Origin: a virus
Taxonomy: Duplodnaviria; Caudoviricetes
Direction: 5' to 3' (one strand)
Virus record (IMG/VR): IMGVR_UViG_3300011438_000034
Span: 1 to 28,495 of that record
Length of the DNA: 28,495 nt
The translations under genes and the position numbers were made by a program. Shown here in pieces: positions 1 through 3,714 of the stretch. The notes beneath the pieces were generated by a model. That model saw only the letters and a program-made list of their open reading frames with translations. It was not told the DNA's origin and did not search any database. The stretch's first letter is position 1. Every line of letters begins with the position of its first letter.

Positions 1-2
1 CC

Positions 3-278
3 AAGAAGTTCGGGGCCGACACCCAGGCCCGCGCGCATTACGAGGCGGGGCGGCTGCCGCCAGCCCGCGTCCATCTGCGGGCCAAGAGGGTCGCGGTGAA
101 GCGGTTTCTATCCGACCTTCAGGCTGTCTGGTATTTCAATGAATACGGCAGGCTTGCCCCGATGCCCTGGATCATCGCCCAAGGAGGGCACGCCCACTAT
201 GTCCAGCCGCCCAACCTCGAAATGCTGCCGGGAATGTCTGAAGCCATGCGTGCCCTACCGCCGCCAGCTTTGCGCTAG
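3..278 (+). CDS. C-terminal 91 aa (5'-truncated) of a Nop-domain/IS110-related protein, putative TIGR-associated (Tas) effector
   Basis: Frame 3 is open from the window edge: KKFGADTQARAHYEAGRLPPARVHLRAKRVAVKRFLSDLQAVWYFNEYGRLAPMPWIIAQGGHAHYVQPPN... The pattern LPP-x-H-x-RA-x-R-x-x-VK-x-FL...W...P-x-P-W/Y...GH-x-H-Y-x-x-PP resembles, from memory, the C-terminus of phage IS110-like/Tas proteins. It lies upstream of a 36-nt dual-spacer array. The N-terminal domains are outside the window. Confidence 0.75.
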   Translation, partial: KKFGADTQARAHYEAGRLPPARVHLRAKRVAVKRFLSDLQAVWYFNEYGRLAPMPWIIAQGGHAHYVQPPNLEMLPGMSEAMRALPPPALR

Positions 279-948
279 CTGCTACGGAAAGGAACGGCGG
301 GCAAAGAACCCTGAAAAGCTGTTGGCGCGGCGCCGTGCCCTATACGCGGAGAACAGAGAGAAGATGCGCGCCCAAAACAGGCGGAACTACCAGCGTCATC
401 GCGAAGCCCGGATCGCCAAGCAGAAGGAATACTACGAGGCAAACCGAGAGGAACGGATGACCTACAACAAGACGTGGGCCGCCCAGCACCGCGAGCATCT
501 ACGTTCCTATCATCGGGAATATCGTGTCTCCGATGCCAAGGGCGCGATCAGGATGCGGGCGATGGCGTCGGTCTATGCTGGGCGCCACCGGAAGAAACCT
601 GAAGCGGCGGATGCCCATCGCGCCAGACAGGCCGCGCGCCGAGCGAAGGGCGCCCAGGTCGAGATCGTCACCATGGCGCAAGCGTTATTCGACGCGGACG
701 GGCTTTGCCATCTATGCGGGCACATGATAGCCGACGCTGGCGAGGCCGAGCTTGATCATGTGATCCCGCTTAGTCGGGGCGGATTGCACGTCCGGTCGAA
801 CATCGCCGCCGCCCATAGCCGCTGCAATCGCATCAAGCGTGGCCTGCACCCTGACGAAATCCCGCCGCACATCACTCGGCGGTTCCATAAGGCGGCACGC
901 AGTCACGCGCATAAAATCCCCCCGCCGAATTGGCCGATGGTGGGATAG
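199..948 (+). CDS. Free-standing HNH endonuclease with N-terminal Cys motifs and an Arg/Tyr-rich helical repeat region
   Basis: C-terminal CHLCG...ELDHVIPLSRGGLHVRSNIAAAHSRCNRIK is an McrA-type HNH signature. N-terminal CRECL and CASC pairs. AAGGAGG at 181-187 favours ATG 199 over ATG 139. Overlaps the upstream gene by 80 nt. Confidence 0.9.
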   Translation: MSSRPTSKCCRECLKPCVPYRRQLCASCYGKERRAKNPEKLLARRRALYAENREKMRAQNRRNYQRHREARIAKQKEYYEANREERMTYNKTWAAQHREHLRSYHREYRVSDAKGAIRMRAMASVYAGRHRKKPEAADAHRARQAARRAKGAQVEIVTMAQALFDADGLCHLCGHMIADAGEAELDHVIPLSRGGLHVRSNIAAAHSRCNRIKRGLHPDEIPPHITRRFHKAARSHAHKIPPPNWPMVG

Positions 949-1356
949 CCGAGGCACGAAAGAGAACCGACTGTGCGGAGCGAGCCGCTATCCGCGAGAG
1001 AATCGTCAGGAAAAAGCGAGCCGAGTCATCAGAGAGAATCGAGTTCCGAGAGCGAGCCGCCTCAGCCGATAGAACCGTGGGTCATCAGCGAGCCGCGACT
1101 ATGGAAAGAAACGCACGAAATGAGCGAGCCGTGCGGCGTTAGAGCGAGTCCGATCTGGTCGAGAGAACCGTGTAAAGCGAGCGAGCCTGTATGAGATTGA
1201 AACGAGACGATAAGCGAGCCTTACCTCGTGAGAGAACCGAATCATGCGAGCGAGAGCCGGCCGAAGCGAGTGAACCTCCCCGCGTGAGCGCCGCCGACGT
1301 TGAGAGAGCCGAGCAAAGCGAGCCGTTTGGAGGGAGAGAACCGTTAAGCGTGAGCG
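947..1356 (+). ncRNA. TIGR-like guide-RNA array (tandem dual-repeat/dual-spacer, 36-nt unit)
   Basis: Units AGCCG-N9-AGAGAACCG-N9-AGCG of exactly 36 nt start at 947, 983, 1019, 1055, 1091, 1217, 1255 and 1321. Irregular units start at 1127 (half unit), 1147, 1184 and 1291. The spacers all differ. Strand inferred from the adjacent Tas-like gene. Confidence 0.85.
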
Positions 1357-1400
1357 CACCCCGCTTGCACCGGCTTTGCCACTGCGGCAAGAATCGACGG

Positions 1401-1622
1401 ATGCTCCTGCACCACGTCGATCCCGCCCGCGCCATGTGGCGGTTTTACCGGCTCAGGCTCGACCGCGACCTGTGGGGTCAGGCGACAGTCCTGCGCGAGT
1501 GGGGGTCGATCGGCTCCCCCGGCAAGGTCCGGGTTGATGTGCTGGCCGACGATGCAACCGCCAGGGCGTGGCACGCGCGCCTGGTGCGGGCTAAGAGGCG
1601 CCGGGGATATGCCCCGCCCTGA
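1401..1622 (+). CDS. Stand-alone WGR-domain protein (73 aa)
   Basis: MLLHHVDPARAMWRFYRLRLDRDLWGQATVLREWGSIGSPGKVR...LVRAKRRRGY matches the WGR pattern (D-P-x-x-x-M-x-RFY, DLWG, REWG-x-IG-x-x-G, K-x-x-RGY). The real start is likely ATG 1401; the longer ORF from 1191 runs through the array. Confidence 0.88.
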   Translation: MLLHHVDPARAMWRFYRLRLDRDLWGQATVLREWGSIGSPGKVRVDVLADDATARAWHARLVRAKRRRGYAPP

Positions 1623-1639
1623 ACCGAAGGACTGCAACC

Positions 1640-1735
1640 GTGCTTGAATTTTTGGTAATCGTCGTGCTGGTGATCTGGGGCGCAGCGGCCTTGCTCCTGC
1701 TCCTCGGCACCGCGTGGAAGTCGCTCGACCGCTAA
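1640..1735 (+). CDS. 31-aa single-pass membrane peptide
   Basis: GTG 1640 preceded by GAAGGA (1626-1631). Translates as MLEFLVIVVLVIWGAAALLLLLGTAWKSLDR. Its TAA overlaps the TAG of the convergent gene. Below the ORF-track cutoff. Confidence 0.6.
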   Translation: MLEFLVIVVLVIWGAAALLLLLGTAWKSLDR

Positions 1736-3714
1736 CGCCGGTCTTCCGGGCGGACGTTGTAGTCATACCGTGCGGGCGTCGTCGCCTCATTGACCAGGGC
1801 GCCGCCGAGTATCCCAGGCACCAGTGGGGGCGCCGCTCGCTGCGCGCCTGTCGTCGCAATCGTCGGCTGCCAGCCGAGCGCCGCCGCCCCGACCCGGGGA
1901 ACGCCGGGAATTGCGGTCAGGGCTTTCACCCATGTCGTGCCGCCGGACGCGGACAGCTTCTTCAACTGCGCCGCCAGCGCCGCCAAGTCCTGCACGTTCT
2001 GCCCCACATGTGGGCTGCCGAACAGCGCGGCGGTCCCCTCCGGATGATCCATTTGCGATTGGCGCAGGCGAGTTAGGAAATCCGCCGGGGAGGGCGTGTC
2101 ATCCACGCCTTGCTTGCTCGCCTTTGCCTGCACGATCTGCCGCAGCTTGATTGCCGCCAGCGCGTCAGCCGCCTCGGGTATCTTCAGCCGCAACGCCTGA
2201 AGGTCCAGAGAATCCCCCTTCATCAGGGCTTCCGTCGCCTGCTCCGGGGTGATCGCTTCCTTGACCGCATTCTTGCCCGAAATCACCTTGGACAGCGTGT
2301 TGTTCTGGAACGTCAGCCCGGCGAGCGTATGGTCGCTCGCTCCCTGGAACTCGTTGCCGACGCCCTTCAGGATGGCCGTCGTCTTCATATCGTTGGCGAG
2401 GCTGCCGTAAAGGCTGGCGAGCGTCTTGTCGCCGATGCTGCCGACCAGGTCAGGCGTTTTCATCGCGTCGCCGACATGCGACCGCAGGGCTTGCGCCGCC
2501 TTCCAGTCAATCGGCTTGGTGCCGTTGGCAGTGTCGCGTTCCAGCGCCTTGAGCCATTCTTGCAGCTTCTCCGCCGCCATCTTCTGTTGTGTCTCGGGCA
2601 AGCCCGCGAGGGCGGGATTCTTGGCCGCGTTCCGCAGTGCGGCGAGGTAGCTGAGGACGTGGACCTCGCCGCCCGTCGTCATGGCGGCATCAACCGGCGC
2701 CCACCTCTGTTTTTGCTCAGCCGGGAACGTCGTTTCCGCCCATCTCCGCGCCGCGTCCTGTATTTCCTTCCCCGCCCTCTGCGGCGTGTTCAGCACGCCC
2801 GCCGCGAGTTTGGTGGTAGTCGTCTCGGCCGTCCGCGCCGTCTCCTCGGCCTTGGCGCCGAACTGATCCGCGAGTTCCTGCCGCTTGCCCGCCAGAAGGC
2901 GATTCGAGGGCGCGACGCCCATAAGGACATTTTCAGCTTCCTGCGCCATGCCGCCCTGGCTCACCTGGCCGGCGGAGGTTGGCGTGATGCCGAGCCGTTC
3001 AAGCGCCTGGGCAATCGGGTTCTTGATGCCCTGGACCGCGTTGACGGCCCGCTCAACCCCCGCTGCGAGGCTGTTGGTGCCGACCGTGCCCGCCACGTTG
3101 CCCACCAGGCGGGCGGTCGGCTTGAGCCAGTCGGGCAGCCCCGTCTTCTCAGCCAGCGCATCCCCGGCCACGGCCCCGACGCCCCCGGCGGTTGCCTGGG
3201 CCACGGCCTGTGGCGCGTTGGTCGCGGGCGCACTGAGGAACGGCCGGACGATGTTCGGAAGCGCCGCCAGCACCTTGGGCGCGGCGAGCGGAAGTGCCAT
3301 CGGGGACAGCATCGAGGAGGCGCCGCGGACGAACTCGGCGCGGGTTTTCTCCCCCTCCGTCTCGGGCTTCGGCAGGCGCAGCGCGTCGGAAACCGCCCAG
3401 TCCGAGGGCGCGGTCACCGTGCCGCCAGCGGCGCGGATGAGCGCGCGCGGGGCTGCTGTCGCCACATCCGCCACCATCCCCGGCAGCGACCCGACGCCCT
3501 CGATGACGTTGCGAGCGCCCAGGCCGGCGCCGCGCGCGAACTGATCTATCGGCCTGCCGTCCTGATACGCCACCTTGAGCGGGCTTTGCGGTATCTGGCC
3601 GAGCGGGATGACTGCGCCCTCGCTGTCGCCGCTGGGCTTCGGGGCGGTGCTGCGCGTCCCGGCCGGGGCGAAGGAGAACACGCCGTCTTCGCCGGAGTCA
3701 TATGTGCCGCTCAT
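1732..3714 (-). CDS. Large internal virion/DNA ejection protein (660 aa)
   Basis: Last gene of the morphogenesis operon, Ala/Gly-rich and helical with hydrophobic stretches. Its position matches P22 gp16/T7 gp16-type ejection proteins. ATGA overlap with the upstream gene. Confidence 0.65.
   Translation of the reverse strand: MSGTYDSGEDGVFSFAPAGTRSTAPKPSGDSEGAVIPLGQIPQSPLKVAYQDGRPIDQFARGAGLGARNVIEGVGSLPGMVADVATAAPRALIRAAGGTVTAPSDWAVSDALRLPKPETEGEKTRAEFVRGASSMLSPMALPLAAPKVLAALPNIVRPFLSAPATNAPQAVAQATAGGVGAVAGDALAEKTGLPDWLKPTARLVGNVAGTVGTNSLAAGVERAVNAVQGIKNPIAQALERLGITPTSAGQVSQGGMAQEAENVLMGVAPSNRLLAGKRQELADQFGAKAEETARTAETTTTKLAAGVLNTPQRAGKEIQDAARRWAETTFPAEQKQRWAPVDAAMTTGGEVHVLSYLAALRNAAKNPALAGLPETQQKMAAEKLQEWLKALERDTANGTKPIDWKAAQALRSHVGDAMKTPDLVGSIGDKTLASLYGSLANDMKTTAILKGVGNEFQGASDHTLAGLTFQNNTLSKVISGKNAVKEAITPEQATEALMKGDSLDLQALRLKIPEAADALAAIKLRQIVQAKASKQGVDDTPSPADFLTRLRQSQMDHPEGTAALFGSPHVGQNVQDLAALAAQLKKLSASGGTTWVKALTAIPGVPRVGAAALGWQPTIATTGAQRAAPPLVPGILGGALVNEATTPARYDYNVRPEDRR

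Follow-up and report, generated by a model that had tools for sequence, protein, structure and literature searches.

A probable homing cassette that brings an HNH endonuclease gene and a foreign tas 3′ end into a phage TIGR locus

Introduction

The left end of the virus contig IMGVR_UViG_3300011438_000034 raises a question: why does an HNH endonuclease gene lie within the 3′ end of a tas gene, ahead of a TIGR array, and why does its product end in a second copy of the Tas C-terminus? The window analyzed here is the entire 28,495-bp IMG/VR contig, which is classed as linear and about 69% complete, and whose 5′ end falls within tas. The order of elements on the plus strand at the left end is the last 91 tas codons, the HNH open reading frame (ORF), a dual-repeat array and a small WGR-domain ORF. 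A tailed-phage structural module, with terminase, portal, major head and tail fibre genes among its members, is found on the minus strand. The answer that we favor is that positions ~102-948 are probably a mobile homing cassette, composed of a foreign tas C-terminus and a free-standing HNH gene that reads into the resident tas tail. We arrived at this reading because the anatomy of the locus matches that of the mORF gene hybrids of fungal mitochondria.

The tas segment involved has a function in other members of the family. In dual-repeat systems, a flexible C-terminal loop of the effector cuts the edge repeat by means of a metal-independent Tyr/His dyad, as described in PMC13421893 and bioRxiv 10.64898/2026.09.09.750476. 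In SpTasH the catalytic dyad is Y289/H296 (PMC13421893). Effectors of the TasA type consist of the Nop domain alone, according to the classification in PMC12045711.

Results

The argument is built on the following features.

3..278, plus strand: 3′ end of a TasA-type tas gene, last 91 codons; frame-3 ORF truncated by the 5′ end of the contig
102..278, plus strand: W-type replacement C-terminus of Tas, with final helix, loop PMPWIIAQGGHAHYVQPPN and extension LEMLPGMSEAMRALPPPALR; left boundary at ~102-132 (W-type denotes a tail with Trp at the position of the dyad Tyr)
189..224, plus strand: first processing-loop copy, HAHYVQPPNLEM, in the tas frame; His 189-191 is predicted to be catalytic in the working Tas
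199..948, plus strand: HNH endonuclease ORF, 249 aa, from ATG 199 to TAG 946-948, in the +1 frame with respect to tas
904..948, plus strand: native tas tail HAHKIPPPNWPMVG and stop, now the HNH C-terminus; starts exactly at the catalytic-His codon

The tas ORF reads ...IIAQGGHAHYVQPPNLEMLPGMSEAMRALPPPALR and closes with ...GGHAHYVQPPNLEM...ALR at 278. The HNH ORF, in frame 1, is open from 139 (269 aa) or from the ATG at 199, and closes with ...ARSHAHKIPPPNWPMVG*, the HAH tripeptide starting at 904. It overlaps tas by 80 nt and, lacking a stop of its own, terminates at the native tas stop. Comparison with related loci located the insertion. By BLASTN, window 3-132 corresponds to L002 3226-3349 at 83% identity and to L003 at 77%, and similarity resumes at 904, where window 904-1259 corresponds to L003 6004-6363 at 79%. 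The 771 nt between these blocks (133-903) stand in the place of ~56 nt in the relatives. The Tas proteins of the HNH-less loci L002 (281 aa) and L017 end in ...AGHAHKIPPPNWPMVG* right before the array, and their ends are identical at 14/14 positions to the last residues of the HNH ORF, HAHKIPPPNWPMVG; the Tas of L003, also HNH-less, ends in ...PMVR*. The native tail shows 6 synonymous and 0 non-synonymous differences with respect to L017, and 8 and 0 with respect to L002. On the left side, identity to the nearest core relatives is lost just after ...RAKRVAVK (K33, nt 99-101), and the DNA similarity to L002 and L003 stops at 132. Judged by these alignments, window ~102-903 is foreign DNA that comprises a W-type replacement C-terminus and the HNH gene. 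The original prediction, made on this stretch of DNA before any comparison, had proposed that the HNH gene entered the 3′ end of tas and supplied a replacement tail while the ancestral tail next to the array became fused to the nuclease, and the 14/14 match to L002 and L017 bears this out. Its underlying observation, a duplicated Tas C-terminus at the end of the HNH, holds both by direct reading of the ORFs and by the conserved Tas motif described below.

An insertion of this kind could in principle be a self-splicing intron or intein, with the 715 nt between the two HAH codons being removed and the native tail restored. Removal of 189-903 would indeed join ...AQGG to HAHKIPPPNWPMVG in frame, and there is an intein in the tas gene of the relative L003. 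The insert length, however, is not a multiple of 3, the HNH ORF has no Hint domain by Pfam, and an Rfam search of window 1-1800 with E values up to 1 returned no intron, the sole match being a chance-level C/D snoRNA (E 0.67). Splicing is also unnecessary, because the upstream tail is complete and in frame. We regard this explanation as extremely improbable.

The two copies of the peptide share just 7/12 residues, which is weak evidence taken alone. Nonetheless, the motif G-H-x-H...P-P is invariant in 11/11 aligned Tas proteins, and both copies are this C-terminal motif. Aligned to the Tas tail of L017, the last 22 residues of the HNH ORF scored 91, compared with a maximum of 50 for 100 shuffles. 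When the Tas profile was aligned to SpTasH with hhalign (probability 95.7%, E 8e-9), the first His of H-A-H fell on H296; for this comparison SpTasH was translated from NC_020844, with a numbering that fits 11/12 of the residues named in the paper. The duplicated peptide is the predicted tigRNA-processing loop of the Tas C-terminus. Native-type tails contain P-Y-x6-H, e.g., APYAMVFAGHAH in L002, and this spacing equals that of Y289-H296, the Tyr being assigned by spacing and not by a scored alignment. The working tail of the window (PMPWIIAQGGHAHYV) has a Trp (168-170) where other tails have the dyad Tyr, and the solved TaTasR likewise has Trp at this position (SKPWILEHGGHVDYIKPPHW; SKPWILEHGGHVDY). 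The W-type tail of the window also bears the C-terminal extension LEMLPGMSEAMRALPPPALR. As a separate observation, the W-type tails (7/93 tree rows) have a Tyr three residues past the His (HAHY), a pattern that is also present in TaTasR (W ... H-V-D-Y). A Phe located seven residues before the HNH-borne His (RRF-HKAARS-H) was considered as a relic of the dyad Tyr and dropped, its basis being the spacing only.

The host gene could be identified with the help of a protein from another contig. P0069, a 295-aa Tas, is 97% identical to the 91 tas residues of the window and has an identical stop, and it was therefore used to supply the missing part of the window tas. P0069 matched the solved TaTasR structure 9mty with E 4e-12, and a profile of its relatives matched TaTasR 9mty with E 1e-23 and TasH with E 3e-11. 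Pfam detected solely the IS110-type domain PF02371 on this stand-in, as fits a TasA-type protein; the N-terminus of the window's own tas is absent from the contig. With P0069 as its stand-in, the host gene is placed among effectors of the TasA type, and it accompanies a dual-repeat TIGR array in a tailed phage. The locus resembles the dual-repeat TIGR-Tas loci of phages in the account given in PMC12045711 both in its Nop-domain protein, which by the stand-in P0069 has ~295 aa and no nuclease domain, and in the two alternating 9-nt repeats with 9-nt spacers, forming 36-nt units, that follow Tas. A second kind of homing element was seen in the same tas clade: the tas gene of L003:3892-6048 (also L021) encodes 718 aa and includes an intein (Pfam Hint_2 and LAGLIDADG_3), positioned between LKRL and CWLLGESF, before the invariant Cys.

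P0069 and the short-tail protein P0083 share 97% identity over residues 101-200, but residues 249-278 of P0069 are 37% identical to P0083, which belongs to the short-tail clade, and 70% identical to the W-type P0070. Three pairs of W-type and native proteins (P0069/P0083, L045/L060, and P0071 with L061 or L074) are 84-94% identical before the last 70 columns, and in all three the divergence sets in at one common position, just behind RA(K/E)R(V/Y)A(V/T)K. A core tree was built with a quick IQ-TREE run from P0069 residues 12-246 and 93 Tas rows, with two fragments of less than 255 aa excluded. On this tree the W label requires 7 changes for its 7 rows, at least 5 of them forced by the starred branches, and it is unclustered (500/500 shuffles were as low). 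Clustering was found for the remaining tail labels, short and ext (0/500 shuffles as low), with the proviso that these regular-expression labels are crude, L035, L038 and L107 being mislabelled as short, and that the W label alone is exact. An approximately unbiased (AU) test with 4 W-type cores and 36 rows, in which the W group was defined by the tail motif, rejected a single W clade (delta lnL 268.6, p-AU 9e-27). These results showed that W-type tails have been joined to no fewer than four unrelated Tas cores, with one breakpoint common to all.

The other component of the insert is the HNH gene, which includes these additional features.

181..187, plus strand: Shine-Dalgarno sequence AAGGAGG of the HNH gene, within the Tas codons Q-G-G, 11 nt before ATG 199
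223..282, plus strand: zinc-ribbon-like C-x2-C ... C-x2-C at the HNH N-terminus, read from the translation and dual-coded with the Tas extension
706..837, plus strand: HNH catalytic core CHLCG ... DH ... N ... H..CN..K, by Pfam HNH

The start codon of the HNH gene at 199 does lie inside the first loop copy, as had been proposed, while the ribosome-binding site, placed there as well, is just upstream of it, at 181-187. Pfam HNH (PF01844) matched residues 190-233 of the 269-aa ORF with E 1.4e-8, and residues C170, C173, D186, H187, N201 and N210 are invariant in 50/50 aligned homologues. The zinc-ribbon motif is common to the window HNH, P0005, the nuclease of L076 and the remnant in L045. An AlphaFold2 model built from 50 sequences (mean predicted local distance difference test score 89.6) has a ribbon at the N-terminus, then eight helices (26-149), the beta-beta-alpha core and one more helix (223-235); the tail is modelled with low confidence, its blocks averaging 77 and then 51 (residues 241-249). 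Among fold matches, the Gme HNH 4h9d, a stand-alone nicking endonuclease, came first (E 1e-4). With its invariant catalytic residues, its own Shine-Dalgarno sequence and ATG, and a stand-alone nicking HNH as the nearest fold, the predicted protein looks like an active, stand-alone nuclease. In RNA run X10 only two 151-nt contigs were found, 128-278 and 753-897, which are not proof of transcription. Other runs contain three variants in the 80-nt overlap, whose effects were derived manually for each frame: C225T is silent in both, G230T is silent for Tas and exchanges R for L in the HNH, and A246C leaves the HNH unchanged and turns an M of Tas into L, the residue that P0069 has. Three sites make a small sample.

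The same properties bear on two other explanations. The protein could be a housekeeping phage HNH, for instance a terminase-associated packaging nuclease, that landed by tas and has no homing activity. PHROGs assigns it to general phage HNH and endonuclease VII families, and nicking HNHs of the 4h9d kind are presumably linked to packaging. The gene is, however, ~24 kb away from terminase at the opposite end of the structural module, related phages have no HNH at the tas locus, and the replacement tail, the shared breakpoints and the scattered W-type tails would be left unexplained, all of which makes this origin quite unlikely. A +1 frameshift or read-through, on the other hand, could yield a single Tas-HNH polypeptide, a nascent TasH with a C-terminal nuclease, as the original prediction had also contemplated. 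The two frames do overlap by 80-140 nt (139/199-278) with the HNH frame at +1, and the product would end in an authentic native tail. Yet the tas frame has a complete second tail and stop that recur in an independent contig (P0069), a strong Shine-Dalgarno sequence and ATG precede the HNH, and the start of P0005 is the equivalent MSG.... In PMC12045711, TasH and TasR are described with their nuclease domains at the N-terminus, and TasH 9w04 ranked only 44 among the HNH fold matches (E 0.14, 60 aligned columns). No fused homologue was found among 1802 longer candidates, although this is weak evidence. We abandoned the fusion, which we consider very improbable.

The relatives of the HNH were then compared. 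Identities to the window HNH are 82% for P0002, 63% for P0003, 57% for P0004, 55% for P0006, 49% for P0005 and 41% for P0007. These closest homologues all end in a Tas-like tail, while distant HNHs stop soon past the domain. An exhaustive profile search gave 9 proteins at E <= 1e-30, and P0093-P0101 were added. Fifteen members were tested for the tail (the window, P0002-P0007, P0093-P0097 and P0099-P0101), leaving out P0001, a near-copy of the window, and P0098, whose profile match reaches only position 168, before the catalytic core. The C-terminal 22-mer beat all 100 shuffles against Tas tails in 10/15 members; by this shuffle test a Tas-like tail was not supported in the other five (P0093, P0095, P0097, P0099 and P0100). 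The best matches belong to several classes: the PPPNWP type (L017, L059), the EVPNAHLVPGLKP type (L065), the HLGHAH type (L083, L069), the AILGHAHLRKP type (L094) and the PPNAHIVPGLEDAL type (P0078). The HNH relatives thus end in native tails of several Tas classes. Since P0002-P0007, P0069-P0080 and P0093-P0101 are known as proteins only, the pairing of Tas and HNH in them is a prediction.

Locus L045 permitted a comparison at the DNA level. A W-type Tas is followed there, in the +1 frame, by CLGCQTHLKPYRQGLCGSCYGKRYRAN, which is the zinc-ribbon N-terminus of the HNH, ~35 codons running past the tas stop. Downstream are a native-tail remnant, ..CCGCCTAACTGGCCGAT.TAGCCG, and then the array. 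L060, a sister 86-89% identical to L045, has a plain native tail and neither insert. L045 is a decayed copy of the cassette. The cassette of the window and its remnant in L045 share one site, and there is no HNH at the homologous site in L002, L003, L017 and L060. At L076:4767-5357, the site of the HNH is taken by an Endonuclease_7 ORF (PF02945, E 1.1e-22), which begins within the Tas tail in the +1 frame. Its product shares a homologous zinc ribbon and homologous helical repeats with the HNH and carries no Tas tail at the C-terminus. The tas gene of L076 has array-like repeats on both flanks, a side observation. The HNH of the window was present in 2/91 Tas-bearing locus rows (66 distinct tails), both of them the window itself. 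Further searches for close HNH relatives in their DNA context were negative: when the virus sequences were scanned with the HNH alone, all matches were tail-only or distant, a scan with the family alignment confirmed 0/69 stretches, genome contigs and a phage database yielded 7 HNHs and 7 records, respectively, all distant, and a metagenome scan returned the window's own contig and otherwise tail-only or distant matches.

These data are pertinent to a further explanation, namely, that the HNH is a working partner of Tas. The retained loop peptide (catalytic His and IPPPNWP anchor) would attach it to the TasA-tigRNA particle or to the edge repeat, making it a trans-acting nuclease for the nuclease-less TasA or a guide-aimed homing enzyme. 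TasA has no nuclease of its own (PMC12045711), the tail is in frame in 10/15 HNH members, P0004 and P0006 share PPPNWP though the HxH is gone, and in the model the tail is a flexible end, as a docking peptide may be. Close relatives nevertheless work without this HNH, which is missing from 89/91 locus rows and decays in L045, and both the L076 nuclease at the same site and 5/15 HNH members do without a Tas-like tail. The docking site would moreover be occupied, because Tas retains its own loop, and the HNH domain is not close to that of TasH. We consider such a partnership unlikely.

The arrangement recurs in other public runs, whose contigs span both junctions (X2 9-239, X3 88-229, X6 122-272, and X7 798-951, which continues into an array). 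Since both junctions are bridged in this way, an assembly chimera is unlikely, and an artefact was discarded as an explanation. In X3, a 336-nt contig joins window 89 to 904 with other letters between them, and the length of this contig is compatible with the 99 nt found in L002 at that place, which is what a cassette-free allele would give; the same run has cassette contigs on 88-229 and 375-617, each with 2 differences. In X4 the sequence past 89 continues as in native-type alleles, and an HNH piece, 710-853, has 0 differences; X5, X6 and X7 have HNH pieces with 0 differences. Cassette-free and cassette-bearing alleles thus co-occur in one metagenome. All 10 differences in the X7 contig 798-951 fall within 898-921, where RS-HAHK becomes KN-HAHY, and this confinement suggests that the right junction is a patch of exchange. 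A variant in X2 has an N-terminal region 45 nt shorter and the tail ...AAKNHAHF.

The array was mapped by a direct repeat scan; Tandem Repeats Finder did not detect it because the spacers interrupt the identity.

943..1343, plus strand: dual-repeat TIGR array, a partial B repeat followed by A/B alternation

The A repeat AGAGAACCG and the B repeat AGCGAGCCG alternate each 18 nt from 961 (36-nt units), the regularity is lost past ~1140, and a final A repeat is found at 1335-1343. The HNH stop codon had been described as overlapping the first array repeat. The overlap is real, and the repeat in question is a partial one, GGATAGCCG at 943-951, which contains the TAG, agrees with the B repeat at 6/9 positions and starts 18 nt upstream of the first full A repeat (961), in the 18-nt register. 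The junction TAGCCG + 9 nt + AGAGAACCG after tas is conserved in L002, L003, L017 and L059, and arrays of W-type cores, where seen, share the edge-type repeat AGCGAGCCG. Array stretches including spacers are 79-89% identical to related phages (window 1122-1254 vs L002 3480-3615, 89%; 904-1259 vs L003), and unit-sized deletions or replacements occur in other runs (951->1122 in X7, 1179->1213 in X2 and X3). As far as these alignments indicate, the arrays are partly inherited and change by whole units. Directly 3′ of the array, window 1401-1622 on the plus strand holds a WGR-domain ORF (Pfam WGR E 7e-12) without a PHROG match; it is covered by several public runs, and WGR-like sequence also follows the L003 array. 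Rfam placed the archaeal C/D-box sRNA sR10 within the array (window 1060-1087, minus strand) at 15.3 bits, where the gathering threshold is 45, and E 0.67; we mention this chance-level match because tigRNAs carry box C/D-like motifs. Promoter and terminator scans of window 1-1800 found none.

Discussion

These results are best accommodated by a cassette that likely spreads among phage tas alleles by homing. We envision that during co-infection the HNH would nick or cut a cassette-free tas at or near the processing-loop codons, and that repair templated by the cassette-bearing genome would introduce ~0.8 kb. Resolution would take place on the left in the conserved ...RIHLRAxRYAVK block and on the right in the conserved HxHxIPPPNW block, so that the recipient would retain its own last codons, stop and first partial repeat. 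Tas would remain functional after the invasion, because the cassette brings a complete final helix and loop, and the invaded allele would be immune to the HNH because its target has been split and has diverged. The HNH-borne tail would then be a passenger rather than a working part. The proposal that the nuclease is a selfish homing enzyme accordingly gains plausibility: it fits the mosaic Tas genes, the scattered tails, the decayed copy, the HNHs with varied native tails and the two alleles in one metagenome. The companion idea that it spreads the TIGR locus is not supported, the moving unit being, on this evidence, ~0.8 kb that includes the last ~55 tas codons and the HNH.

Elements of this kind have been described elsewhere. 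In the hybrid genes of fungal mitochondria, namely, Allomyces macrogynus atp6 and Glomus atp6, atp9, cox2 and nad3, an inserted foreign C-terminus is followed by an endonuclease ORF and by the native C-terminus downstream (descriptions in PMC3630166 and PMC6279837). The likeness to the examples in PMC3630166 extends to the order of core, in-phase foreign C-terminus, endonuclease ORF and native C-terminus, and to a native copy that shows only synonymous differences from near relatives while the inserted copy is divergent. The differences are that those genes involve LAGLIDADG or GIY-YIG enzymes in mitochondrial respiratory genes, whereas here an HNH is found in the gene of a phage RNA-guided effector; that here the nuclease ORF, preceded by a Shine-Dalgarno sequence of its own, opens with an ATG within the carried tail in the +1 frame and closes in the native tail; and that the displaced piece holds an RNase active-site residue and adjoins a guide array.

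The nuclease itself resembles the free-standing HNH homing endonucleases of phages, such as T4 mobE (PMC2790892) and the boundary nuclease genes of PMC10448857, as these sources present them, in having an HNH with an N-terminal DNA-binding extension, in its sporadic presence among related phages and in the co-conversion of flanking DNA. Its location sets it apart: the present gene lies within a coding region and, if active as its sequence predicts, compensates with a replacement 3′ end. Classic free-standing homing endonuclease genes typically sit between genes. A different comparison is TasH, the HNH-Nop fusion represented by SpTasH of Salicola phage CGphi29 (PDB 9W03/9W04), which shares with this locus an HNH and a Nop-domain Tas at one dual-repeat TIGR locus, and whose loop with Y289/H296 aligns with the window Tas tail. 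In TasH, as described in PMC12045711, the HNH is the N-terminal domain of the same polypeptide, while the present HNH is encoded downstream by an ORF of its own and has a predicted zinc ribbon and eight helices. The main text of PMC12045711 contains neither "intein" nor "homing endonuclease", and "homing" appears there only in the title of a cited transposon paper; its supplementary neighbourhood tables could bear on the subject. The main text of the 2026 TIGRFinder preprint uses "homing" and "intein" 0 times, and its supplement could bear on it too. As far as our limited literature search goes, the kind of element is known, and its host, its target (the RNase active-site loop of an RNA-guided effector) and its read-in to the native tail are new.

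Several considerations weigh against this interpretation. The whole case is one of comparative anatomy, from which we infer the cleavage, the target site and the gene conversion. The tripartite structure is seen in its DNA context at just the window and L045, and it is P0069, from another contig, that represents the 5′ portion of tas lacking in the window. The core tree is the quick IQ-TREE version, and the 36 rows of the AU test were picked after the first tree, with the long-branch W rows P0070, P0077 and P0080 left out. The W-type tail of L034 ends directly at its array without an HNH remnant, so W-type tails may also exist as a natural lineage. Finally, P0004 and P0006, which are 57% identical to each other, both keep xC---PPPNWP despite the loss of HxH, which hints at selection on the tail in the HNH protein or on that DNA. 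This retention could be due to refreshment at each homing event, to constraint on the array-adjacent DNA or to a real role of the peptide. Because the last of these may apply, we also entertain, as a long shot, the idea that the HNH and its tail are a detachable nuclease arm of TasA, forming a two-part RNA-guided cutter or a homing system steered by TIGR guides. If true, a nuclease-less RNA-guided binder would turn into a two-part RNA-guided cutter.

Under the homing cassette interpretation, tas genes would be targets of homing elements, as represented by the HNH cassette, the Endonuclease VII-type gene at the same site and the intein in a relative. The final helix and the tigRNA-processing loop act as a naturally swappable module, found on at least four unrelated Tas cores, and could serve as a ready-made engineering guide. 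A variant of the processing loop with Trp in place of Tyr would be spreading horizontally. The strategy of an endonuclease that carries a spare 3′ end, known from fungal mitochondria, would in this case operate in a phage and be aimed at the codons of an RNase active site.

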